64,000 nt of DNA from Candidatus Bathyarchaeota archaeon (GTDB lineage Archaea; Thermoproteota; Bathyarchaeia; Bathyarchaeales; Bathyarchaeaceae). The notes beneath the pieces were generated by a model. It did not search any database, had not been told where the DNA came from, and saw nothing but the letters and a program-made list of their open reading frames with translations. Shown here one piece after another: positions 25,158 to 39,754 of the stretch (positions within the stretch are counted from its first letter, which is position 1; the number at the start of each line of letters is the position of its first letter). The DNA lies in assembly GCA_963697165.1 (NCBI GenBank), contig CAVOMX010000025.1, positions 32,001-96,000 on the forward strand. The letters are read 5' to 3'. The position numbers were made by a program, and so were the translations under genes.

Positions 25158-25245
25158 TGGCGCGGGGTGCGGGATTTGAACCCGCGTGGCCCTACGGACC
25201 ACAGACTTAGCAGGCCTGCTCCCTACCAGGCTAGGAGAACCCCGC
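25158..25245 (-). tRNA. tRNA-Ser(GCT), CCA encoded
   Basis: GCGGGGT...ACCCCGC G CCA acceptor; CAGGC-CT-GCT-AA-GTCTG anticodon arm; long variable arm; GGTTCAAATCC. Confidence 0.95.
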
Positions 25246-26110
25246 AAAGGTCACTCTACTCCAATTTTCTCTAGTTCAAGACTCGGGAGTTTACCTTCCT
25301 ACAATTATACTCAGCATCTATTTTTGTCTTTTTGTGGGTTGACTACGCTCAAAAGGTAAAGCAACAAAAAAGACTTGTATCTTATATCATGTAATTCATA
25401 ATTTTTTGGAACAAGTTAATGCGCCCGCTAGAGTTTTTTTTCATTTCGTATCCCAATAAATTCTCACGAATAATTTGGGTTTGGAATTTGAGTAAATGGC
25501 AAAATATGGGAAACCAATTTAGAAACTCGTTTTGAATGCAGCTCACAAATTAAATAAGGAAATATTTAGATGTTAAAAAAAGTGGTCGGGATCAAACCTT
25601 GCGCGTGCGTTTATGACTAATACGATATTAGAGGAAGAGTAATTTTTTGTTTTAAATTATTAGCTATTATTGTGTATTCGATATGAATGTATATTGTGGG
25701 ATCTTTGGAATTGGGTTTAGCCTCTATTTTAGCATGAATATTATCAATCCGTTTTTCCCATGTACTAAGAGATTTTTCTATGAGAAGTGAAAATTTTTAC
25801 CAATTCTGGCTCGTTTCGAATATAATAGATGTTAGATAGACATGTACGGGAGAGTCGAGGTAAGGGCTACGTAATCCTAAAATGAGTTGGATAGAATCAA
25901 TTATGTTTTTATAGTGTGCATTAAATCCTCCATCAACTTCATACGTTCTTCCAGGGAAATCGAGTCTTTCTCTGTAGGAGAGAACGGATAAACGAGAGGA
26001 AGAACAAAGGAGAAAATACGTAGACACGCGCGGATTGCCATTATGCGTTAGTCTTATTCTAGTTATTTTCCAAGTCCAACTTCGATTCTTATAAGAGTTC
26101 CATGATTAAA

Positions 26111-29100
26111 CTAATAATCACGTATCTTTGTCAATAATCGTGCTTTTAATTCATTTTTTTCATATCCTCTAATTTCCAATGTGAGAATTCCTTTGGAATG
26201 AGTTTCTTTCGGCATCTTTATTTTAATTTCTTTTGACTCATTTTGAACATCTACAGATTCAATTGGTCTATTTTCAATGAAAAAGTCAAGGCGTGATAGA
26301 TTTTCAGTGGTAACTACACCAATGATACTATAATTAACAATTTTCTTAAATTCAAAAGAAATTTCATGAACTAGCTTAGACGAAAGTATCTCTCCAGCTT
26401 TGTTTATTAAATCTTTATTACCGTTCAACAAATCGTCATCAGTCATTTGATAAAAAACATCTGGAGTAACTCCGAAATCTTCCAATGGAATAGTTGAATT
26501 TTTTCCAACTCTTAGCATCCTTCTTGCAGCAACTGTCATATTTGCCCCTTTGGGTAGAGAAAAGAATTGGGAGCTTGATGAGTTCGGAGATGTCTTTCCA
26601 GAATCTTTCATTAAGAGAAGAAGTAGATCATGACTCCACACATTTGCTCCTCCGGCTCCTGTATTTTTGTTTACCCCAATTATTGTCCCAATATTGTGAT
26701 CTTTGAATCCAGCCGCAAACATATCAGCCGCACTGTAAGTTAATCCATTCGTGATAAGAACTACAGGACCATAATATTTTTGACCAATATTATTACATGA
26801 GGTGAGAGACGTAATCGGAAATCCTCTGGAGTATGTAGCGCCCGTTTCTATAGCTTGATGTATCGAATCTTTCCAAGGTTTCAAATCGAAATCATCCCAT
26901 AGGTTTGAGGGGCTATTCTTTTCACATATCTCGAGCATTAATCTTGTATTAAGAAATTGAACCTTCTCTGGATTAATGGTATTAGGAGTCAATGTTTGTA
27001 ATAACCGTTCAGCAGCCATTATCAGACCTCCACCATTATCACGAATATCAATAATAAGCCCCTTTTTTGGAAGTGAAGAAAGTAGCTGGATAAACTCTTT
27101 TACGAATTTTTCACTATCATCTACTTTAAAGGTAAATATTCTTATATATGCAAAATCCCCAGCATCAGTTTTCGCCTTTTTGGCTCGGAATACCGATGGC
27201 ATGTCCGTTGGGATTTCTCCTCCTCTTACTGGAGCCCGATCAATATTCTTTTGCGCAATGTTCCTTTCAAGTTTAACAGCGTCTGGAGCGATCATCAACT
27301 TTTTTACTTCTTGAATCGCAAATGAGTGAAGATCCAGACCAAGCGCGGTTGCTTCGCCAACATTAGACTTAGGAGTTGTTGTAATGAATGCTGTTGGAGG
27401 CGCGAATACAAGCCATTTTTGGATTAATTGAAATTCTTTTTCATTAGAGCGATAATTGAAAGTTACCCATTCTTCATCTGGAGGAAATGAATTAATTAAT
27501 GGACGAATAGTTAGAGCATTGATTCCCCTTGCTCTTCGTGCAGCAGGATTACCTCCTCCTTGTTTTTCAGAATTTAATTCAATTGCACGTTTGATTGGAA
27601 TTCCATTCCAATGAGTGATTTCGACACCTTTTTTAAACGTCTTTGGACCGAATCCTTCCATTTTGTAAGAAACGATATATTTTGGATTTTTTTCTCCCGA
27701 ATTATCTTTTATGAAACATTCCTCAATAATGAATGGCATGAAGGCAATTTTTCCCTTAAATGGATGGGGCAGAAGGTAATTTGTATGAAGATCTCTGGTA
27801 GATTTAAAAATATCAATCATTTCTTTATGGAATTCAATTTCACAAGGTAATTCTTCTATTGTTGTCCTTTCAAGCTTGTATTGCAATAATTTTAAGCGTT
27901 GTATGGGATCAATTGCATACATCGCTTTTTTATGAGGTAGATGAACATAAACTTGTTCAAGTAGAACAAGTGCTTGATTAACTATATCTAGACGTTCGGA
28001 GCACTTCAAATATCCTTCTGAACTTAAGAAGGTAGATAATTCAGAGGTGGTATCAAAAAGTTCTTCTTGATATTCATCTTTGAAAGTAATGCTTTCAGGA
28101 AGAATGGGTTTTACTCCGTATATTGAGGGTAACCTTTTTCTTAGAAAGTCGGGGAGATTTACTTGATTTGCAATTTTTTTGAAATATTGTTTATCATCGA
28201 CAACTGCCAAAGGATCAAGTTCTACTACTACATCTTTTAAAAGTGTTGGATAATCTACTGCTTCATAAAAACTTGGAAAACCAGTTTCATTTCCTTCATA
28301 AGGTATATGTGGCCTAATGAATTCGGTTGCTAGTTCATCTTGTTCCAATGATAAAAACCAATAAGGTTTCATCGTTAAGCCTGATGTTGCGCGATTCCAT
28401 CCAGAATCAGGTTGTTCAAGATCAGTAGCCAATTCACCTAATCGTGATAATCCGTCTTGAAGGCGATCGACGGCTTCACTCAATTTTAAAGTTAAAGAGA
28501 TTGGATTGTTATTTTTAGTTTCAAGGTTTAATAATCGAAAAGAATTTTTAATCTTAAGAATTTCGGTATTTAACTTAAAATTATCCATTAGCCGTTTTTG
28601 ACCATATCGAGGAATACCATCTATTACCACAAAAGTAATTGAAGTTTCTCGTGCATCTATAAGTCCTTGATATGGTGGCCCTTTCTGTCCATTGATTACA
28701 ACCAAATCTGCAATTTTTCCCTTTTCTATTGTTCCAATATGTTTATCCCACTTCAGAATTTTTGCAGCATTTCGTGTAACCATTGAAACTAATTCTTTTT
28801 TTGTGAAAGGTTCATCTAATTCATTGTTGATTAAGTGAGCTATTTTCAATTCACATAAAAGATTCTTGCTTCCTGTCGGAGACCAATCTGAACCTAAAGC
28901 GATGAGTAACCCGGAGTCTTTCGCACATCTTATCCTAGCAGTTTGTCCATATAGTAAATAGTTACTCAATGGAGACCATACTATGGAAGCTTCATATTTC
29001 TTCAGTATATCAAAATCTTCAGCTTCAAGTGCTACGCAATGAATTCCAGACAATGCATCTGTAATTGCCCACTTTTCCTCAGAGATCTGAAGAGCAAAAA

Positions 29101-29768
29101 AATGAGCCCGCGATCTTTCATCCACACCTTCACTAAGATGCAACAGCTTGCATCCCTTACTTTCTTCTAGTTGATCCAAGAAAGTTTCTGCTTCTCTTGC
29201 TGCTACATCAGCAATTCTTGTACCTGCATTTGGTAAATCTTCATTATCAGTGGCTTCAACATTACGTACTAACCCTTTAAATCTGGTCTTAGTTCCTGCT
29301 ACCGCATCTGCAAGCGTTATCCCCTGAGAAGTTGTTACACCTGAAATAAGACATTTACATTCAACATATCTAATAATTGCTTCAATATATTTAATTGACC
29401 TTCCCAGCACATACATAGGTCCTCTAATTAATCGCGTTTTATCGCGATGACCTTGCCACTGCCCACGGTTCTTGAATGTTTTAGGAACATTCCATAGTGG
29501 TAAAATGTTATAACATAAATGATTGTGAAGTTCAATTAATCCAGGATAAATTGTACCACCTGTACGAATTACCTGGATTTCTTCGAATCCTTGAGGAGGA
29601 GTTTCGTTTGAAGGTTTTACATCCACAATTTTTTCTTTTTCAATGTATATTGTCCCTTTGTCTAATACTTCAAAATCATCATTCATCGTGACGATTTTTC
29701 CTTGAATTGCATATTTCGGTTTGTTTTGTAAGTCGATTTTATTTTTTGGCGAATTGTTTTCCCCCCAT
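26111..29768 (-). CDS. Amidohydrolase (deaminase-like) fused to CPAF-like S41 serine peptidase, ~1200 aa
   Basis: PGLIELHNH, LHLSEG, IHCVAL, LGSDW (amidohydrolase). DLHTNY, IDIRDNGGG, YSAADMF, TGAGG, LEDFGV (S41). Frame is open upstream of 29686 (KYAIQGKIVTM); ATG at 29768 is displaced by one base in a G-run. Confidence 0.85.
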
Positions 29769-29908
29769 TATTTTTTTAAAACGAATTCTATTACAGTTAC
29801 TTCATGTTTTTTAAAAACTATAAAATTTTCCCTAGTTATGGTTAATCCGCTACTCTTGAATACCTAAATCTTGTAATTAAATTTAAAAATAACTTACCTG
29901 AAATTACT

Positions 29909-30859
29909 ATGGGGGATAATATGGGTTCTTCTTTTAAAAAATTATTAATAAATAAATACCTGAGTAAATCTATTGACGAAATTTTAAATTCATCATCAGC
30001 GGCTCTCCGAGGACTTAGTGAGACTGACGCCAGCGAGTTAGAAAATTCAATCGACATCACTACTATAAGGGATATGGCGAATAACGAATTTTTTATTCAT
30101 GCAAAGGCTTTACTTTCGGCATCTGGTACACCCAACTACGATCCGGGTCCTCCACCAGATTGGACTGATTTCTTTGAATCCGTACCTAATTACATGTCCC
30201 ATTGGCCAAAAAGAATTCGATGGGAATTCGGACCAATTTTTTACAGAGGAAGACTTGATGGTACTGCAAGAGTAATTGTGATTGGTCAAGATCCGTCCAC
30301 TGATGAAGCACTTGCGCGTCGTGTTTTTGTTGGAGGTTCAGGACAACGCGTTCAAGGGCTCCTTAAAAAACTAGGTATCAGTTCTTCTTACATTATGATT
30401 AACACATTCGTATTTAGCATCTACGGACAATTTGATGCTGAAATGAAGACTATTTCCAAGAATTCTCTAGTTTTGAATTACAGAAATGAATATTTGGACA
30501 GACTAATCGAACAAAATAACATCGAAGCAATCATCGCTATTGGTGCAGCAGCTCGTCACGCCATTGAGAATTGGTCTATCCCACAAGGATTGCACGTTTC
30601 AAATTTAGTCCATCCCTCAGCACCACCAAACATGGTAACTGCCGATTGGAACAAAGATCTCTCAATTTTGCTTAATAAAATTGAACCAGACTTAAACGAA
30701 GTTCAAGATAATAGACCCTATGGTCAAAATTGGGCACCCGGAGACCGGGTCCCAATTCCTAGAAGAGATTTACCGTTTGGAATACCTGAATTCTTAGGTA
30801 CTGGTGGGACTAGAAGTCGTAGAGACACTCCAAAAAAAATTGTTTGGGAAGCACCATAA
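29909..30859 (+). CDS. Uracil-DNA glycosylase superfamily protein with N-terminal helical extension
   Basis: IGQDP (motif A), FVGGSG, INTF, LVHPSA (motif B); ~75-aa N-terminal domain ALRGLSETDA...ITTIRDMANN. Confidence 0.8.
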   Translation: MGDNMGSSFKKLLINKYLSKSIDEILNSSSAALRGLSETDASELENSIDITTIRDMANNEFFIHAKALLSASGTPNYDPGPPPDWTDFFESVPNYMSHWPKRIRWEFGPIFYRGRLDGTARVIVIGQDPSTDEALARRVFVGGSGQRVQGLLKKLGISSSYIMINTFVFSIYGQFDAEMKTISKNSLVLNYRNEYLDRLIEQNNIEAIIAIGAAARHAIENWSIPQGLHVSNLVHPSAPPNMVTADWNKDLSILLNKIEPDLNEVQDNRPYGQNWAPGDRVPIPRRDLPFGIPEFLGTGGTRSRRDTPKKIVWEAP

Positions 30860-30872
30860 AATCAATTATTTA

Positions 30873-31012
30873 ACAAAGGTAACTATAACCAGGCTAGGAG
30901 AACCCCGCAAAGGTCACTCTACTCCGATTTTCTCTATTTCTCAGACTCGAGAGTTTACCTTTTTACCACTATGCTCATCATCTATTTTTGTCTTTTGTGG
31001 ATTGACAAAGCT
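30873..31012. repeat. Internal attP-like junction (P arm + core + P' arm)
   Basis: Core at 30888-30909. The following ~105 bp match 25246-25349 (about 15 differences by hand alignment). The preceding ACAAAGGTAACTATAACC matches ACAAACGTAACTCTACC at 39625-39641. Confidence 0.88.
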
Positions 31013-31068
31013 AAAGATTATGCATAGATGTGCGAGAATAGATTTTTCGGGGGCAATTTATAAACAAC

Positions 31069-31250
31069 TTAAATTACCTCAAGAGCTCCATCGTTTATTG
31101 AGACACAAGATGGGGTGAGCTTCACACTTGCTGCACCATTACTCAATTCAATGTTACCTATATTCATAATGATCTTCAAGCCAGTTACGCTTTCAATAGT
31201 GATTTCACCTGTACCCAGTATGGCTTTGATTGTTATTTTGGCAAAATTTG
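31069..31250 (-). pseudogene. C-terminal remnant of a VgrG/gp5-like baseplate spike gene
   Basis: TGEITIES..G.KI.M....IELSNGAASVKLTPSCVSINDGALEVI* beta-helix-like tail; no N-terminal OB-fold domain. Confidence 0.6.
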
Positions 31251-31299
31251 TTTTGATATGATGCACACTAATAAATGAGAGGGATAGCAAAGATTCAGT

Positions 31300-32868
31300 C
31301 TAATTACCAGCTATCTGTTGGATCTTTATTATAATAAATTCCGCTGGTTTCAGAGGTGCAAATCCTATGATGATATTAACAATACCTCGATCGATGTCAT
31401 ATTGTGTAGTAGTCTCTTTATCGCATTTCACAAAATATGCTTCTTTGGGGGCGGTACCTTGAAATGCACCTTGTATAAACATTTCGTGCATAAACTTACC
31501 TACATTAAGACGAATTTGTGACCAGAGCGGTTCATCATTCGGTTCAAACACAACCCACTGAGTTCCTCGATAAAGGCTTTCTTCGATATAAAGGGCCACT
31601 CGACGAACAGAGAGGTATTTCCATTGGTCAGCCAGTCTATCTGCTCCTCTCATTGTGCGTGCACCCCAAACTACTGGTCCGATTACAGGCATGATTCGCA
31701 GACAGTTGATGCCTAACTGATTTAACTTACCGTTTTCTTTATCTGTCAATTGGTTACTTAACCCGGATATTCCTATCAAGGTTGCTTTATCACCCGCCGG
31801 AGATTTCCAGACACCACGTTCAATATCCGTTCGTGTAATCACACCTGCAACCGCACCGCAGGGCACAAAATCCCGAATTATATTATTACTTTCAGGATCG
31901 TTTGCTTTGATTCGAGGGAAATATATTGCAGCGTTTTTGTGTCTTTTTGGTTGGAAACCTGGACTATCTATTCCAATATTAGGATCCATTGGTTTAGCTT
32001 TAGTGTTCCATGATGTTGGTGGGTCAACAATGAGTATTGCGCGTCGTTTTTCACAATAATCTAGAGCTTTTGAATATACAGCCCCTGAAGGAGTCTCGTC
32101 CTCTTGATATGGGGGAATACAGAGTAGGTTGAAATCAACATCATCCAAAGCATAGATACCCGTCCTATCGTTGAGGTTGCCAATAATGTTGGAATCTTCG
32201 ATGGGGTCTCCATCGCTAGCTGACTCTAGCACCAAAGAAATTGTGTTTGGTAGTTCAGTATTATCTTTAGTTGTGGCTTCTGGAGGTCTTTCGTTCGGTA
32301 CATCTCCTAGTACACGAATTAGATTTGACTCATTTTGCAAAATATTTTTGATAAATCTTGGGCTATCGATTTTAACACTAAGATTATGAAAGTTTTCACT
32401 TGTTAGAGTTTTTTTATCATCAATTGTAAGATTGAAAATGGTTTCTTCTTTGTCTAGGTTGTCAGTGTCTATATTGTGGTCAATTGTTATTTCAAGACGT
32501 TTGCCCCACTCGCCGGGGTTAGCTGCTTCAAACTCTAAATTTGAACCTTTAATCGTGAACGTGGCTTTTCCGTTTATTTTATCTCCATTAATGCTCGTCT
32601 CAGGGTTATAGACTCGAACGATTATTGCTTGATTACCTCCGTTCTGGAAGTAATGATAAAGTGCATAACTCATGTTGCTTTTTTTCCATAGTCCACCGAA
32701 GGAACGTGTGTAATCCGCAAAACTGAAAACTCGTTTTGCCTGGTTCACTTCTCCCATTGAAGCGCGTCCAATAAAAGCTGCTATTGACGAACTAACACCC
32801 TTTATAGTTCTAATTGCAGTGGGAATTTCTTCTATGTAAACTCCAGGATATGTAATTTGGATTGGCAT
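31300..32868 (-). CDS. Contractile tail sheath protein (eCIS Afp2/3/4-like)
   Basis: TYPGVYIEE, AAFIGRA, YFQNGG, PCGAVAG..RTD..RGVWKSPAG, WGART, FEPN, GFAPLKPAEF. Confidence 0.93.
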   Translation of the reverse strand: MPIQITYPGVYIEEIPTAIRTIKGVSSSIAAFIGRASMGEVNQAKRVFSFADYTRSFGGLWKKSNMSYALYHYFQNGGNQAIIVRVYNPETSINGDKINGKATFTIKGSNLEFEAANPGEWGKRLEITIDHNIDTDNLDKEETIFNLTIDDKKTLTSENFHNLSVKIDSPRFIKNILQNESNLIRVLGDVPNERPPEATTKDNTELPNTISLVLESASDGDPIEDSNIIGNLNDRTGIYALDDVDFNLLCIPPYQEDETPSGAVYSKALDYCEKRRAILIVDPPTSWNTKAKPMDPNIGIDSPGFQPKRHKNAAIYFPRIKANDPESNNIIRDFVPCGAVAGVITRTDIERGVWKSPAGDKATLIGISGLSNQLTDKENGKLNQLGINCLRIMPVIGPVVWGARTMRGADRLADQWKYLSVRRVALYIEESLYRGTQWVVFEPNDEPLWSQIRLNVGKFMHEMFIQGAFQGTAPKEAYFVKCDKETTTQYDIDRGIVNIIIGFAPLKPAEFIIIKIQQIAGN

Positions 32869-32965
32869 CGTATAGCATCCCCCTAATTAGATAATAATAT
32901 CGCAGGGGGTCATTAAAATTGTTTAAGAAAATTTTGATCTGAAATATTTTAAAAAAATATGTACC

Positions 32966-33403
32966 TTAAATTAGTCTGGAAATTGCTTCGATAATTCTTT
33001 CTTTATGGTTGTACTGCAGTTCCTCAATAGTTTCTATCAGTTCGTTGATCAGTAACCTATACCCTTTTGTGTTCTGATTTAGTAACCACTCTAAAAATCC
33101 ATGAGACAATAATTGCTTAGCTTGATCAAAATCTTCTACGAAAATGAAAATTGTGTTTCCACGAACTTCTTCTAGGAGTTGCTTACCGTTTCTGTGCCGT
33201 ACAATACCAGGTGACCATTCTAGATTTTGTTCCTTAAAGCGCTTAACATGATAACTAACTGTGCTTTTGCTACATCCAATTAATTCTCCAACTTCAGTTT
33301 GTGTTTTTCCATTTCCAACTAATTCTAAAATCTGTTTAGATATTGGAGTAAACTGGAAGAGTTCGAACTGTTTATTCTTATATCGAACTTTCGAACTCCT
33401 CAA
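32966..33403 (-). CDS. HTH-domain protein (start uncertain)
   Basis: GKTQTEVGELIGCSKSTVSYHVKR HTH. Confidence 0.6.
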   Translation of the reverse strand: MRSSKVRYKNKQFELFQFTPISKQILELVGNGKTQTEVGELIGCSKSTVSYHVKRFKEQNLEWSPGIVRHRNGKQLLEEVRGNTIFIFVEDFDQAKQLLSHGFLEWLLNQNTKGYRLLINELIETIEELQYNHKERIIEAISRLI

Positions 33404-33589
33404 ATCTAATCAATCCCATTTTTTTATTTCAAAAAGAACATGAAATTTTTGATGAAATTATCAGAAGAATTTTGGAAATATGGCTAAGCTTAGCCCAATT
33501 ACAAATCGTTTATTATTTGTTTTACTCATGATAAAGATGCAGGTGTTCTATGTTGAGTGATTACTCTAATAGAAGGAGACTGTTACTTA

Positions 33590-35416
33590 ATGATTGAATT
33601 GTCTCGAGTTGGTGCCCATCTTGACGGCGATAGTGTACGTTTTGGGTTATATCTGCCTGCTCTTGAGAAAGAGGAGGCAATTTCTCTCACGGCGAAGGTT
33701 AGTCATATAAGCGATTTTGCATGGGAGAAAATTTTTGATTGCCCTCTTCAGTATATTGACAACCAAGATGGTTACCCATTCTATGAAGGAAACCTCGATC
33801 TGACAGGCAAAAAAAAGGGCTTATATCGATACCAGTATGAAGTGGGCAAACACGATACTATTTACCCGTGGTGGGCTAGTGATCCTTTCGCAAGACAAAC
33901 GGCTGCAGGACATCGCTCCGCGTTTTTCTATGGCGAGGAGGAGAAGATCACAGTGCCACTTTTTGAAATGCCTTCTGTAGATGAGCTTATTGTCTATGAA
34001 TGTAGCATATCGGAGTACAATCGCACATTTGAAGGATTTATCAGGAATATTGATTACCTTGAAGCTTTGGGCGTTAATGCTGTTGAGTTCATGCCCTTAA
34101 CGAATGTCGTAGAAACTTACCGCTGGGGTTATGTTCCTCTCAACCTCTTTGCACCAGACGAGCGTTTTGGTAGGCCTAATGATTTGAAGAGATTAATTAA
34201 AACGTGCCATGAACTTGGAATAGCCGTAATTATGGATGTAGTTTATAATCATATTAGTGGTCGTTTTGGTTACAATGTAATTTACGATCAAATTGGTATT
34301 GAGAATCCCATAACGGGTGAATTCGGCAAATCGTTCTATGGGCTTTCTGATGTGGACTACTCAAAGCAGTTCGCTCGGGAGTTCATTTTTTCAGTCAATC
34401 GCTATTACCTCGATGAGTTTGGCGTTGATGGTTTCCGATACGATTTTACTCCCGGTTTCTTTGATGGAGTCCAAATTGGAAATGTTGGATTGTCACATCT
34501 TTTATGGTCAACACGTGAATACGCAAAATCCATTGGGCGTCCCAATATTATTCAATGCATTGAGCATCTAGAGAAGTGCATCATTCAAGGCACCGAATTT
34601 GAACCGGTTGATGTTTTCAATAAAACATACGCTAACGCGTGTTGGTATGAAGACCTAAGATCAAGAATAGAAAATCAATTCGCAAAAGGTAATCTTGATG
34701 AAAGTCTAATTCGACTTCTAGATCTTGATGCACGCGGTTACCAGTTGAATTATGAAAGCGAAGAAGAATTAGTTAAATCACCTTTTGTGTACCTCGAAAC
34801 CCACGATCACAGCAGACTCATAAGTTACTTTCCCGCTCGTGCCCTACAGAAAGATTATTTCGGTGAAAACCAGGGTGATCGTTATGCGAGTTATTATTTA
34901 ACTCAGCCCTACGTTATTGCTCTTTTCACGGGCCCGGGTACTCCTATGATATATAATGGACAAGAGTTCGGAGAAAACTATATTGTGCCAGAGTCTGGAA
35001 TGGATCGCGTTCTGAATTTCCGTTTTCTTCGCTGGGAAAACACGGAAGATCGACCAGGTCGGACGCTACTTCGTTTATATCAGCAGCTAATCTTGCTCCG
35101 TAAGAAATATCCTTCCCTCCGCAGTAGAGGGCTAAACAGTTTCTATTACTACAACCAATATGATCCACAAACTGGTGAAGTTGGCAATTATCGTCCACCA
35201 AAAGGAGTATATTTCTACAGACGACAATTCGATAACGAAATTGTGCTTGTTGCACTAAACTTTACAAGCCAAGAATTATCAGTGCCCCATCCATTTCCCG
35301 ATGTTGGTACCTGGCGAGATCTCCTCCATGATTCCGAAGTTACTAATACTCCTGACAAACGCTGCCCAAAGGTTAACATACCAAGCAACTATGGTCGTAT
35401 CTACTTATTAGAGTAG
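33590..35416 (+). CDS. GH13 alpha-amylase-family glycoside hydrolase (branching enzyme/trehalohydrolase-like)
   Basis: DPFAR, WGY.P, DVVYNH, DGFRYD (nucleophile), EH, THDH, YNGQEFG. ATG 33590 follows AAGGAG. Confidence 0.9.
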   Translation: MIELSRVGAHLDGDSVRFGLYLPALEKEEAISLTAKVSHISDFAWEKIFDCPLQYIDNQDGYPFYEGNLDLTGKKKGLYRYQYEVGKHDTIYPWWASDPFARQTAAGHRSAFFYGEEEKITVPLFEMPSVDELIVYECSISEYNRTFEGFIRNIDYLEALGVNAVEFMPLTNVVETYRWGYVPLNLFAPDERFGRPNDLKRLIKTCHELGIAVIMDVVYNHISGRFGYNVIYDQIGIENPITGEFGKSFYGLSDVDYSKQFAREFIFSVNRYYLDEFGVDGFRYDFTPGFFDGVQIGNVGLSHLLWSTREYAKSIGRPNIIQCIEHLEKCIIQGTEFEPVDVFNKTYANACWYEDLRSRIENQFAKGNLDESLIRLLDLDARGYQLNYESEEELVKSPFVYLETHDHSRLISYFPARALQKDYFGENQGDRYASYYLTQPYVIALFTGPGTPMIYNGQEFGENYIVPESGMDRVLNFRFLRWENTEDRPGRTLLRLYQQLILLRKKYPSLRSRGLNSFYYYNQYDPQTGEVGNYRPPKGVYFYRRQFDNEIVLVALNFTSQELSVPHPFPDVGTWRDLLHDSEVTNTPDKRCPKVNIPSNYGRIYLLE

Positions 35417-35940
35417 CAACTTATGAAATCCAAAAAAGCATAAAAAATCCAACTTGTCAGTTAAAAAAAATTTTTGGACCGTGTCAGCCAAACATTCTCA
35501 ATAAAAATTATAGCACTGAGATGGTTGCATTCTTCAAACGTGTTGATCCCGCCATAATTCGTGAGATCACAGAGGCGGGAAATGAAAGCAATAATAAGAT
35601 TGAGACATCAAACGCTTATATTAAGACGACTTTCGGTATCGTGCATGTTCGGAGCAATGGAGAACGTGTTCTAGTTGTAACGCATGGGGTAAGCCTGGTC
35701 AAAAAGAGAGCTATGCGTTTAAGGTCGATAAACAAGGCAAAATTACATTCGAAGAAACTAAAGTGATTTGAAAAGAATAACTTGCTGTTTTTCCAGCCCC
35801 AATTTATTCTAAAATCTGTTTGGACATAGGATTTAACCTGAAGAGTCCAAGCGTTCTATCTTTTTCTACTAACTTGAATGTTGCTGCAGGCTCAGTTGAT
35901 AATAATCAATACAAGGTACTGACTTTATAATAAAAGAGGT

Positions 35941-37524
35941 TTAACGAAGCTCTGGACTCAAATTTTTTATTCTTTTATCTATGGCTAATTGTGCGCTAAT
36001 TTCTTGTTGAGTTAAGACTTCTAATGTTTTCCAGAAGTAAAGTATGTCTTTATAGTCATGCTTCCGCATGAAATTTAACGCTATTTCTATTGTTTCTAGT
36101 GCAGAATTATTGTATGAAATTATAGCTTCTTTTACGGATTTGGCGTATTCGTCAAGGTTAAATCTTTCAGGATAAAACTTTCCAATTATTTGAACATCAA
36201 GATATAACATGCGTAACTTGTTTACTAGAGCTAAAGAACCAAAAAATGCTTCGTGGAATGTTTTTGTGAGAAATACTTCCATCAAGTTTACTCTCGGATC
36301 ATTAAATTGGTAAGTTGGATAGTCCAGGGTTCCTTCAAGCCTGCCTTCTCGTTTTAATTGTTCCGCAATCGAAGTGCCTGCATAAGGAAACATTTTAGTA
36401 AAGTGAACCAAAGCCCGACCATTAAGAGTTAAATTCTTCAGAAATTCAAGATCTCCCTCGATAGAATCAAATGTAGTAGTAGGTGTAAGCATCATGAATC
36501 CATAGTCAAACTTCATGTCTGCTTTCTCGAGTAAATCAAGTGAATTGTAAACGTCTTTAACTGCAAAATGCTTATTGCAGGTTTTAAGACCTTGCTCGTT
36601 TCCAGATTCTATTCCTAGGTATACAAACGTAAGACCGACATTCTTTAGTGTTTTTAGACAATCAAGATCCAACTCGTCCACTCTATTTGATATTCGCCAA
36701 AGGATCTTATCGTCTATTTTTCTCCTTTTTAGCTCCGAAGCGAATTCGTTGATCCATTCTTTTTGTACCTTTGTTTTCATTCCCAAATCATCGTCGACAA
36801 ATTTGAAAATCCTAACGTTACTCTTGTAAAGCTGTTCCATTTCTTCCGCAACGTTAGAAGCTGATCGTGACCTTCGCTTTGGTCCAGGTGCATCTAAGTA
36901 AAATTGGCGTATACTACAAAAACTACAATTATAGTAACAACCTCGACTAGCAAGGATTGATGCAGACTCAATACCGCGGTACTTTTGTTTCTTACCGCCT
37001 CTAATAGGGAAAGGTAGGGAATCAAGATTTTCAATAAGTTTTCTTGGTGAGGTGAAGACTACTTCATCGTTTCTTCTAAAGGCAATTCCCTTAATCCCGA
37101 ACCATTTATCAGGATTTGCCAAGTTTTTAAAGAGCTCTAATATAGTAACTTCACCTTCGTGGGTCACCACTGTGTCAAGCTCTGGCATGAGTTGCAATGT
37201 TTTTGTATATTCTATTGTTGGAAAATGACCACCCATGGTAAAATGTGCAGAAATACCGCTTTCTCGAAGGTATTTCAACAGTTCCTTAAATTCAAGGACC
37301 ATAGGTTGAAAAATAAGAGAAAAACCAACCATTTTGGGGTTGGTTTTAAGAATATCTGCTAGAACTTGCTTTTTATCTGACTTTCTGTATGGTACGATCT
37401 TTACTTTTAGTTTATTTGCTTGTAGGTAGGCTGCAATTGATCTGAGGCCAAGATTCTCCTCGTCCTCATATCCAACAAGAGCGATGTCACAGTCTTGAGA
37501 CTTTGCCTCTTTTAAAAGAGATAT
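35941..37524 (-). CDS. Cobalamin-binding radical SAM enzyme (class B methyltransferase-like), ~527 aa
   Basis: Frame is open upstream of the track start through DIALVGYEDEENLGLRSIAAYL to an ATA at 37524. GGHFPT, HEGE, SRGCYYNCSFC, GIESG. Confidence 0.9.
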   Translation of the reverse strand: MSLLKEAKSQDCDIALVGYEDEENLGLRSIAAYLQANKLKVKIVPYRKSDKKQVLADILKTNPKMVGFSLIFQPMVLEFKELLKYLRESGISAHFTMGGHFPTIEYTKTLQLMPELDTVVTHEGEVTILELFKNLANPDKWFGIKGIAFRRNDEVVFTSPRKLIENLDSLPFPIRGGKKQKYRGIESASILASRGCYYNCSFCSIRQFYLDAPGPKRRSRSASNVAEEMEQLYKSNVRIFKFVDDDLGMKTKVQKEWINEFASELKRRKIDDKILWRISNRVDELDLDCLKTLKNVGLTFVYLGIESGNEQGLKTCNKHFAVKDVYNSLDLLEKADMKFDYGFMMLTPTTTFDSIEGDLEFLKNLTLNGRALVHFTKMFPYAGTSIAEQLKREGRLEGTLDYPTYQFNDPRVNLMEVFLTKTFHEAFFGSLALVNKLRMLYLDVQIIGKFYPERFNLDEYAKSVKEAIISYNNSALETIEIALNFMRKHDYKDILYFWKTLEVLTQQEISAQLAIDKRIKNLSPELR

Positions 37525-37531
37525 TTACTTG

Positions 37532-37789
37532 CTATCCCCTTTTGGCCATTATCAATGACTTCATTGTTTCGAGCTTTTCAAGTTCCAATTTCAAATTTTG
37601 CATCTGGAATCTTACGGCGTTGATTTTCTGATCAATTTCTTTTTCTAGTACGACTTTGATCTGATCGGCTGCAAGGTTTTCTAGCCACCGCCTCAAAAGG
37701 TAAGGAGCTGGGTCTGCTACGGGTCCAAGAAAGTCACGGATATTTAAAATTGGTCTATTAATTTCTTCTGCCATTTTAACACCTTCCAT
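37532..37789 (-). CDS. Small protein with GPVADPAP motif and C-terminal coiled coil; candidate radical SAM substrate/precursor
   Basis: 80-85 aa; ends 7 nt before the radical SAM gene; likely start MAEEINR after GGAAGGTG. Confidence 0.75.
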   Translation of the reverse strand: MEGVKMAEEINRPILNIRDFLGPVADPAPYLLRRWLENLAADQIKVVLEKEIDQKINAVRFQMQNLKLELEKLETMKSLIMAKRG

Positions 37790-38268
37790 ATATTGTTAAT
37801 TAATAGTCCATATAAATCTTCCCAGCGTTATCCATTTGCACCGTTATTACTATAAGATAACTTTTCGCTACGGGTGTAAAAGGTCAACTTATAAGCAATC
37901 AGGACTAATTTGCATCCTTCATTTGGCTGGAATGGGCTGATGGAATTTTCCCCAACAAAATGGGAATCTAAATTTTTCAGCCATAAAGCACATTATGCAA
38001 ATTGTGTGACCGCAACCATAAAATGTGCTTGTCCAAGTGGATTTTTCCAGCAAAGATCACATTTAACATATATGATTCCTTCAATCCTTTTCATACTATC
38101 AGCTTTTACTTTTCATAATAATAGAATTCTATGCTTATCGGATCAACTCCAAGTTCCCTGTCACAAACTGGACATTTTCCATCAGTTCTTCTTATCAGAC
38201 GTTAAATGGGAATCATGTCTCTTCATTCATACAAGAGTTTTCCGTAACCATGCTGGAGATCGTAATTA

Positions 38269-39570
38269 CTATTTCTTTACGAGAATCTTTCCGGAAGAAA
38301 GCACGGTTTGGACATCCCACCCTTTTGCTAAGTAGTTTTCCAAATCATATTCATCTATAATCTTTTTAGGCTCTTTGTTGGGATTCTCTCTTAAGCGGTT
38401 ACCTTCAAGACTCAACGTCCTTATTTCGTCAATGGCATCATCAACTGAAGCATATTTTGCTAAAGCCTCTTCAACGCTCTTGATTCTGTCCTCATCGTAG
38501 CCAAATAGCCTAGCTGTATCAAGAAGTTGCTTCTTTCTCAATTCTTCGGAGGAATAATTCTTTTGAGGGAAGAACTCAACCTGAGCATATTTTCTTCTTA
38601 AATCCTCGATCTTAGTCTTATCATAGTAAGTGTCTTGGCTTCCTGGTAAAATATGCCCCATGAGAAATTCTTGATCTTTAGTATCCATTCCACTATTTCT
38701 TAAGGCAGATTCAAAGGCTTTTCTAAGACAGTGAGGAGAAACAAAATTCCATTTCTTAACTCCAACATCTCTTGCAGCACGCTTTACAAGATTTTCAAGT
38801 GTCTTTTTCATAACGGGAGTTTTTCTTCTCAAGTCAGGAACTAAATTTTTGCTAGTGGAAGCAAAGAGAGGTTCATTATCGCCAATATTACCAAAACTTT
38901 TCTTTCTTTTTTCCAAGTATTGGCTTATTGCTTCAACGGTTTCCATAGAAAAAAATGTGTAGTATGTTATGTTCCCTTTGCAGGCGCCATTAACAATTTT
39001 TTTCATTTCAGCATAAACTGGAACATTTAAGATGTCTAGTCCATTTTCAAAATCGTCTTTTACGTCTTGATATAAGATTGCTCTTAAAGTGGAATTTCTG
39101 AGTCCACTTGTATAGAGGGATAAAACTAATGCCTTATTGCGAGTTGACCCAGACGCGTAAGCCATCTTGTAAATTTCGTCAGATGTTGGAATATACTCGT
39201 CACGTTTTCTGTAACGTGAAGGTTGATAATGGCGTTCAACTTCAAGAGCCTTACTTCCTTTTAACCCATTGACTTTGAAGAATGTCTTCAAGTAAGCCAG
39301 AGACACATTCACATATCTAATACTGTATCCTTTGTTGGCTAACGAGTCAACAAAATCTTTCACAAGACTAGAAGCCTTGCTAGGACTTAAAGTTACAAGA
39401 TCGTCTGGACCTTTATCCGCAAAGTCTGATAGCGCTTTTACAGTCTGACAAGCATTCGCTCTCGTATGTTCACTTCTTGTTTTGCGTTGGTAATGACGAA
39501 GCAGACGATTGACACTTTGAAAATTACTGTCCCAACCGTTTATTTGCAAAAAATCTTCCCAGTTGGTCAC
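38269..39570 (-). CDS. Tyrosine recombinase/integrase
   Basis: SGLRNS (R), CKG (K), HCLRK (HxxR), LMGH, DTYY (Y); starts 66 bp from the att repeat. Confidence 0.93.
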   Translation of the reverse strand: MTNWEDFLQINGWDSNFQSVNRLLRHYQRKTRSEHTRANACQTVKALSDFADKGPDDLVTLSPSKASSLVKDFVDSLANKGYSIRYVNVSLAYLKTFFKVNGLKGSKALEVERHYQPSRYRKRDEYIPTSDEIYKMAYASGSTRNKALVLSLYTSGLRNSTLRAILYQDVKDDFENGLDILNVPVYAEMKKIVNGACKGNITYYTFFSMETVEAISQYLEKRKKSFGNIGDNEPLFASTSKNLVPDLRRKTPVMKKTLENLVKRAARDVGVKKWNFVSPHCLRKAFESALRNSGMDTKDQEFLMGHILPGSQDTYYDKTKIEDLRRKYAQVEFFPQKNYSSEELRKKQLLDTARLFGYDEDRIKSVEEALAKYASVDDAIDEIRTLSLEGNRLRENPNKEPKKIIDEYDLENYLAKGWDVQTVLSSGKILVKK

Positions 39571-39754
39571 TGTATCACCAGTAAATACAGGGTTTACTGT
39601 CTAAATAAGTGTTAGGGTAACCTTACAAACGTAACTCTACCAGGCTAGGAGAACCCCGCATAAGATATTTTGTTCAGAACGAAACCTAAAAAAAGTATCT
39701 GTTCAAACAAAACCAAGTTTTTATAAAACCGTTGTATCCATACTGTTGGAAGAT

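Follow-up and report, generated by a model that had tools for sequence, protein, structure and literature searches.

We analysed a stretch of 64,000 nucleotides (nt) from contig CAVOMX010000025.1 of a Candidatus Bathyarchaeota archaeon (the window), in which two adjacent genes encode a small Asp-Pro protein and a cobalamin (B12)-binding radical S-adenosylmethionine (SAM) enzyme. All features of this pair are on the minus strand, and the nearest named homologs of both genes carry the same Candidatus Bathyarchaeota label. Where loci and genomes need to be told apart, they are given L and G numbers, respectively, and G000 is the genome of the window itself.

The small open reading frame (ORF) lies at 37532 to 37774 and encodes 80 amino acids counted from the second ATG, or 85 from an ATG at 37789; the second Met is the start in close homologs. 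The initial annotation described a protein of about 80 residues in which the segment FLGPVADPAPY is followed by a long coiled coil. We found this segment in the ORF, and AlphaFold2 predicted a single helix (residues 25 to 79) behind a disordered, Pro-rich head. Hydrophobic columns 47, 51, 54, 58, 61, 65, 68, 71, and 75 follow a heptad pattern, which confirmed the description. The heptad-repeat part of the helix (residues 47 to 75; 37550 to 37636) is also homologous to proteins without the Asp-Pro motif, as described below, and a 7-residue insertion or deletion present in 26 of 46 homologs keeps the heptad phase. Alignment of the same 46 homologs marked the DPAP motif (residues 21 to 24; 37703 to 37714) as the putative modification site. 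Over 75 codons the small gene differs from that of L007 at 8 synonymous and 9 nonsynonymous codons. No Pfam or NCBIfam family fits the protein, and a Pfam run on 33 members returned scattered weak matches only, with at most two members per family. Foldseek with the predicted model found no match in the PDB, and a search of the ESM Atlas gave no usable match.

The enzyme gene (35941 to 37524) spans 527 codons of open frame and probably starts at an ATA. Pfam identified an N-terminal B12-binding domain (PF02310; residues 18 to 131; 37132 to 37473; 65.9 bits against a cut-off of 32.1) followed by a radical SAM domain (PF04055; residues 192 to 362; 36439 to 36951; 65.5 bits against a cut-off of 29.5). 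The first is of the base-off/His-off type, with the motif G67-x-S69-x-I71-F72-Q73, and the second holds C196-x3-C200-x2-C203. This domain order and the cobalamin motifs place the enzyme in class B of the radical SAM enzymes. We found that C196, C200, C203, S69, F72, Q73, G98-G99, and G124-E125 are invariant in 113 of 113 enzymes and that G67 is kept in 107; Ile stands at the lower-ligand position, where OxsB has Asn/water, in 111. The AlphaFold2 model (predicted local distance difference test [pLDDT] score, 95) contains the B12 domain, a partial barrel, and a C-terminal domain of four helices without a sheet (residues 410 to 520; 35965 to 36297; DSSP assignment, pLDDT above 90). In this domain, a candidate substrate-binding cap, F450, Y460, N472, I494, and W498 are at least 90% conserved. 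It does not have the fold of a recognition element (RRE) for peptides that are synthesized by ribosomes and modified after translation (RiPPs), and neither the enzyme nor any of 47 scanned neighboring genes matched the PqqD family, so we found no mark of an RRE-dependent RiPP system.

The best fold matches were tied at 17 to 20% identity: OxsB (Z 24.7), MgmA (Z 24.5; root mean square deviation, 3.3; 379 aligned residues), and AprD4 (Z 24.0). OxsB was also the top sequence match (E 6e-22). The window enzyme reached the cut-off of none of 25 listed NCBIfam B12 radical SAM families, which include BchE, ApyD, HpnR, HpnJ, PhpK, MgmA, KedN5, TIGR03975, and CUAEP, and a bacterial member of its clade reached none of 23.

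At the junction (37522 to 37539), a GGGGA ribosome-binding-like site overlaps the end of the small gene and is followed by TAG, 7 nt, and ATA, with GGGGA 10 nt ahead of the ATA at 37524. The 7-nt gap reported earlier therefore stands if the enzyme starts at this ATA and not otherwise, since the first ATG, GTG, or TTG of the frame is at 37332, inside the B12 domain, and there is none before codon 65. Enzyme homologs align from residues 2 to 13, ahead of that first standard start, and codons 12 to 64 diverge in frame from those of L007 (7 synonymous and 10 nonsynonymous differences). Reading by eye, we found that L007, L021, and L032 have ATA in the corresponding position; in L032 a GTG 13 codons further along is an alternative, and L008 carries ATG/TTG. 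The genome does not use ATA as a start in general: near ORF starts, 45 of 711 ATA codons had a ribosome-site-like motif, compared with 5.6% of all codons and 146 of 801 ATG codons. We thus take the ATA start to be a local feature, and its rarity may keep enzyme levels low. It also means that gene callers shorten the B12 domain of the enzyme in public sets, and the gene calls of close homologs are indeed shortened (453 to 479 amino acids).

Upstream of the small gene, TTTATA (37816 to 37811), with purine-rich bases upstream of it, forms a possible archaeal promoter (37811 to 37822). The hexamer fits an archaeal TATA box, is the only copy in 480 nt, and lies 27 nt ahead of the ATG at 37789; L008 and L032 have TTTTAAA boxes at a comparable distance, again read by eye. 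The box noted earlier is therefore present, and it is weak evidence for a promoter because we estimate that about 0.5 copies would be expected by chance in such AT-rich DNA. A sigma-70 promoter scan was set aside as not applicable to archaea. Contigs from RNA runs of two different studies span the junction (37370 to 37763 and 37431 to 37675); contigs of this kind cannot show strand, level, or transcription, and we did not count them as evidence.

Named genomes, metagenomes, and sampled genomes supplied the enzyme loci, which fell into 33 groups at 80% identity. Four are of a more distant sister type and three have no upstream DNA (L022, L039, and L117), which leaves 26. We found a homologous small gene directly upstream of the enzyme in 23 of these 26 groups, the window's own included. 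As controls, we examined 52 loci that encode distant B12 radical SAM enzymes, 48 from viruses and 4 from plasmids; none has the small gene, and the best score was 9.9 bits (E 0.48). The window's genome has a single match to the small protein, beside the window enzyme, and none beside the other 12 enzyme matches. We also built a profile without the five bacterial peptides of the G615 family and ran it over 8,076 short segments. It picked out the peptide upstream of the enzyme in 10 of the 11 loci of that family, and it is the independent, noncircular part of the evidence for the motif and the linkage. Judging from neighboring genes, we take the G615 family to belong to the green sulfur bacteria. 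These results show that the two-gene unit first seen in the window is conserved.

The initial annotation regarded the system as archaeal, and this was not borne out. Named carriers are Methanothrix harundinacea, Candidatus Methanoperedens, Methanoregula, and a record titled Bacteroidota, and bacterial carriers were found. Presence is patchy: three phylum samples gave 3, 3, and 4 of 301 genomes, each count including the centre genome. The enzyme occurs in 4 of 301 genomes of the window's class (counting its own genome and one sister-type enzyme) and was not found in seven genomes of the same genus. The clade is large: in a database clustered at 90% identity, 1,894 of 7,998 scored candidates passed E 1e-100, not all of them checked for clade membership. 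Viral contigs held only distant relatives of the enzyme. A tblastn search of plasmids with the window enzyme gave no match at 1e-40; a homolog as the query found 11 records at 26 to 32% identity, and the four that we examined had no Asp-Pro protein. One Burkholderia stagnalis plasmid carries a 55-amino-acid ORF (L042, 4642 to 4809) between three radical SAM genes and a peptidase gene of the insulinase family, a RiPP-like cluster that is unrelated to the Asp-Pro system.

Among the 46 aligned small proteins, the anchor position is Asp in 45 and Glu in 1, and the next residue is Pro in all 46. Ala or Val follows in 36 of 45 and the final Pro is present in 38 of 46, so that Asp-Pro is the invariant part and x-Pro is usual and not required. 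We found two or three Asp-Pro copies in 14 of the 46 proteins, and 59 of 60 copies lie outside the last 35 residues. A Methanothrix protein (L001, 3426 to 3815) is one that carries three repeats. The flanks of the invariant dipeptide are variable, no core length is shared, and aromatic residues have no fixed spacing relative to it. The heads contain 11% Pro and 5% Trp. M. harundinacea has five tandem small genes ahead of one enzyme gene, and in the fifth (L001, 4704 to 4955) EPAS replaces DPAP as a natural variant. Upstream ORFs of homologs thus kept DP(A/V)P and often repeated it, as the initial annotation had anticipated. A short gene tightly linked to a maturase gene and a motif repeated in about a third of its homologs are also what a RiPP cluster has. 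Two sequences were discarded: P0016, a 1,595-amino-acid protein with a chance GPVIDPAP repeat that was removed before the 46 were counted, and L030, which proved not to be a true member.

A sister enzyme clade, joined to this one with a tree support of 0.994 for both clades together, offers a second view of the pairing. In three of its four groups, the enzyme has neighbors with EP(A/V)H repeats, proteins of 239 to over 370 amino acids, and the lower-face motif of these three groups is G-L-S-M-V-F-T; the fourth group (L118) has no EP(A/V)H neighbor within 10 kb. The sister pairs lie at L046 (461 to 1180), L062 (3381 to 4440), and L063 (3311 to 4425). In one genome (G1044), an EP(A/V)H pair occurs together with an enzyme of the DPxP clade that has no small gene. 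The sequence acid-Pro-Ala/Val is common to both clades. Motif and enzyme have diverged together, as expected for an enzyme and its substrate, and Pro is a slightly better candidate for the target than Asp because it is the sole residue constant in DPxP and EP(A/V)H.

The initial annotation took the C-terminal helix to be a follower or recognition element, and we found that this idea is weakened. Searches with the small protein also returned helix-bearing proteins without DPxP (for example, L123 and L130). We sampled 101 genomes from the order of G304, a Methanoregula record, and found 25 matching places in 23 of them. Of these places, 24 have neither a DPxP motif nor an enzyme of the DPxP clade within 1.5 kb, and one of the 24 has a distant B12 radical SAM neighbor. 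With a profile built from Asp-Pro proteins only, the median score of the 24 proteins without DPxP was 23.8 bits, against 0.4 for reversed and -0.3 for shuffled sequences; at least 15 bits was reached by 20 of the 24, by 0 of 24 reversed sequences, and by 0 of 480 shuffled ones. A broader profile run on 201 genomes of the window's class matched only the two true loci and so does not pick up coiled coils at large. The DPxP-less proteins (L134 to L157, such as L134 at G304:C1:545119-545334 and L139, and L123 at 1492 to 1653) are 53 to 78 amino acids long, have no family name, and share the stalk. Their heads in Methanomicrobiales contain 10% His, 16% Met, and 22% Gly, and they are possibly metal binding. 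Several of the genes lie near a GNAT-like gene and the gene of a nitrogenase-like CENPLWPC protein. The helix would thus be a shared oligomerizing stalk with exchangeable heads. Since it is common to a DPxP-less family that lacks a DPxP-clade enzyme, it may be a stalk and not a disposable follower, and it may still serve in enzyme recognition.

Taken together, these data make it likely that the enzyme modifies the Asp-Pro motif in some way. That it does so by methylation, with the small protein left whole, we hold only tentatively. According to this model, transcription would reach the small gene first, and its translation would probably exceed that of the ATA-started enzyme by far. The enzyme, which by its domains and motifs should hold base-off cobalamin and a [4Fe-4S] cluster, would grip the small protein, probably via the C-terminal helical domain. 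A 5'-deoxyadenosyl radical would then take a hydrogen from Asp or Pro of each D-P-x-P unit, and, if the usual class B chemistry applies, a methyl group would move onto that residue from methylcobalamin. The product would be an uncut coiled-coil oligomer that presents modified Asp-Pro heads inside the cell. The whole small protein is the most likely product because no protease or exporter is linked to the pair and because the heptad module belongs to an enzyme-independent family.

Several observations weigh against this model. The count of invariant Asp-Pro is partly circular because the locus peptides were first selected by a DP pattern. Three of the 26 groups (L017, L019/L020, and L059/L060) have no upstream small gene; in the tree, these orphan enzymes nest among peptide-bearing Methanothrix-type enzymes. 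We found no Asp-Pro protein in G1044 or G1024, genomes whose completeness is not given. Unlinked host proteases could still cut the product. Methylation is no more than probable because the best NCBIfam scores, all far under their cut-offs, mix nonmethylases (BchE, 136 bits; HpnJ, 100) with methylases (ApyD, 108; HpnR, 100), and in the fold comparison the nonmethylases OxsB and AprD4 tie with MgmA. TokK, ThnK, and CysS share a Trp two residues past the downstream cobalamin motif and a Trp in C-x3-C-x2-C-x-W (PMC9204698). The enzyme lacks this signature, since the position of TokK Trp76 is the invariant Gln73; the consensus after the third Cys is C-S-I. As a side observation, two of the loci without the small gene (L017, 1870 to 7863, and L019, 1802 to 7828) are Methanothrix-like, with the enzyme between tandem acetyl-CoA synthetase genes. 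A structure prediction of the enzyme with the small protein (alignments, SAM, and 4Fe-4S supplied) gave scores of 0.01 and 0.02, which we used neither for nor against the model.

One alternative, close to the version of the initial annotation, is a classical follower-type RiPP: an N-terminal core would be methylated, the helix would act as the follower that the enzyme recognizes, and a host protease encoded elsewhere, or the labile Asp-Pro bond, would free a short peptide. Core-then-follower order is known in bottromycin (PMC11285071), and a follower is cut by an unlinked protease in clavusporin (PMC10849626). The heads rich in Pro and Trp, the repeated cores with a single helix, and the tandem precursor genes also look RiPP-like. 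Nevertheless, we consider it unlikely, because the helix is common to enzyme-independent proteins, no conserved cleavage site was seen in the small-protein alignments, and no core length around Asp-Pro is fixed. The gene neighborhoods speak against it as well. As the initial annotation stated, the operon has no protease or exporter, and across groups neither these nor any third gene recurs with the pair. It had named TldD/E and the nearby S41 protease as possible maturases. Neither survived: tblastn with the window's TldD, TldE, S41 fusion, amylase, sheath, integrase, and UDG found no match in 35 representative homolog loci (231 kb), and all were rejected as partners. TldD/E lie outside the attachment (att) repeats described below, and S41 belongs to an integration module of its own. 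Peptidases of the M10/astacin type were seen beside just two loci, both from Methanoperedens and both in one group. The 47 scanned neighbors, hand-picked mostly from 76 listed with near-duplicates and doubtful frames omitted, contained no family that recurs across independent groups; this test is limited by the short flanks (1.5 kb) of many homolog loci. One of the 47 is a major facilitator superfamily gene beside an orphan enzyme.

A second alternative keeps the small protein as the substrate and replaces methylation by other chemistry, for example Pro ring contraction or expansion, epimerization, cross-linking, or rearrangement of the Asp-Pro backbone. We regard this as rather doubtful. BchE has the top NCBIfam score, and OxsB, the top sequence and structure match, likewise ends in a helical bundle (PMC9204698). 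QCMT converts a Pro substrate to a product of the same mass (PMC13469106). The lower-face cobalamin motif, which has been called potentially chemically determinative (PMC9204698), is here G-x-S-x-I-F-Q and differs from those of OxsB (Asn), TsrM (Arg), and TokK (Tyr-x-Trp). Since it matches none of the three, the reaction cannot be read from the sequence. Most characterized members are methylases, however (PMC9204698), and the peptide-acting class B enzymes in the cited papers are all methylases in their native role. Aromatic residues not being fixed relative to Asp-Pro argues against an aromatic cross-link.

Finally, the small protein could be a nonsubstrate partner (a chaperone, active-site plug, or scaffold, as MpcC is for MpcB) of an enzyme whose target lies elsewhere, for instance a small molecule or a different protein; this would suit the three nested groups that keep the enzyme without an adjacent small gene, the requirement of MpcB for a partner protein (PMC10849626), and a helix well conserved for a disposable precursor, but it is improbable because partners do not usually multiply a motif or gene as here, single chains of the parallel EP(A/V)H system contain many copies of its motif, and the pair is not accompanied by pathway genes that would provide a small molecule as substrate.

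We compared the pair with known systems. Among the targets methylated by class B enzymes are Pro, in both bottromycin and clavusporin, and Gln of methyl-coenzyme M reductase (MCR) (PMC11285071, PMC10849626, and PMC13469106). In clavusporin (MpcA/MpcB/MpcC), a B12 radical SAM enzyme acts on a short peptide of ribosomal origin, β-methylating Pro and further residues; MpcB differs from the window enzyme in having CX7CX2C, in needing the DUF5825 protein MpcC and an N-terminal leader, and in occurring in Actinobacteria with an S9 peptidase and a transporter (PMC10849626). The window system has CX3CX2C, two genes only, and a motif N-terminal to a coiled coil, and it occurs in anaerobic archaea and bacteria; with no match to DUF5825 or an S9 peptidase among the 47 neighbors, it does not belong to the mpc type. 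In bottromycin (BotA and BotRMT1 to BotRMT3), an N-terminal core precedes a C-terminal follower and Pro receives one or two methyl groups from a radical SAM C-methyltransferase (PMC11285071). The motif of the window system, by comparison, has no fixed position within its variable head, and no further maturase is linked; the likeness that the data show is the core-then-helix order. The bottromycin cluster is large, with several other enzymes, among them a YcaO enzyme and proteases, and its core begins at residue 2.

MgmA/QCMT (PDB 9ccb; TIGR04014) is likewise archaeal and of class B, its substrate is an intact protein (PMC13469106), and it is among the tied best folds. It differs in that the window enzyme scores 81 bits against its cut-off of 360 at 20% identity, and MgmA targets MCR Gln and has no dedicated small-protein gene. 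ApyD (NF050148) and PoyB/PoyC (TIGR03975) are also class B RiPP C-methyltransferases (PMC11117315 and PMC11285071), and the window enzyme scored 108 of 750 and 63 of 282 bits against their models. ApyD carries an RRE and PoyC a CX7CX2C motif (PMC11117315 and PMC11285071), in contrast to the all-helical C-terminal domain here. OxsB (PDB 5ul2; 17% identity) shares the B12 domain, the radical SAM barrel, and the C-terminal helical bundle; it is a nonmethylase that acts on a nucleotide, has an extra N-terminal domain, and uses Asn/water as the lower ligand, where this clade has Ile. Because it failed the family cut-offs and lacks the partner genes, the system is a member of none of these. It might be comparable to MpcB or bottromycin RMT3 in acting on Pro or to MgmA in acting on an intact protein.

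The pair lies in an integrative island (25223 to 39660), recognized by att-like repeats, a tyrosine recombinase gene (38269 to 39570), and a GC content of 0.34 to 0.40 against 0.41 to 0.45 over most of the flanks. A 24-nt repeat of a tRNA-Ser end occurs at 25223 to 25246, 30886 to 30909, and 39637 to 39660; these three copies, with a longer repeat in this composite island (25225 to 25332 and 30888 to 30996), suggest tandem integrations. A 74-nt repeat (33302 and 35786) overlaps a helix-turn-helix gene and may mark a duplication. The island also encodes a 1,191-amino-acid fusion of an amidohydrolase domain with an S41/CPAF-like peptidase (26111 to 29686, minus strand), an unusual architecture that is followed by a UDG-family gene (29909 to 30859, plus strand). 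A lone phage tail-sheath gene (31300 to 32868, minus strand) is probably left over from a contractile element; the window's ORF list shows neither tube nor baseplate genes. Elsewhere in the genome, one contig (G000:C11:43373-63942) holds about seven further B12 radical SAM matches, two of them apparently split.

We concluded that the pair is a real two-gene modification system of a known general kind, without a description found in the literature searched. Our searches found no description of the motif or the enzyme clade; most subscription papers and supplements (RODEO and sequence similarity network tables) were outside their scope. To our knowledge, a peptide or protein substrate has been identified for few B12 radical SAM enzymes, and the archaeal examples that we know of act on MCR. 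Here the enzyme and its likely substrate are encoded side by side and can therefore be coexpressed at once, which makes the system directly testable.

If our interpretation is true, site-specific action of a C-methylase, or of a stranger radical enzyme, on a four-residue Asp-Pro tag would represent a new modification and give peptide engineers a portable tool, and an uncut, modified coiled-coil product would blur the boundary between RiPPs and protein modification. A bolder possibility, which we also think unlikely, is a product that is never released as a peptide and stays an intact oligomer of coiled coils whose Asp-Pro heads have been rebuilt chemically. Together with the EP(A/V)H pair, such a system would mark out a superfamily of B12 enzymes that modify acid-Pro sites, perhaps by reactions other than methylation. 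In such an oligomer, the modification may make or tune a binding site, for a metal or a cofactor, that the enzyme-free relatives build from ordinary residues.

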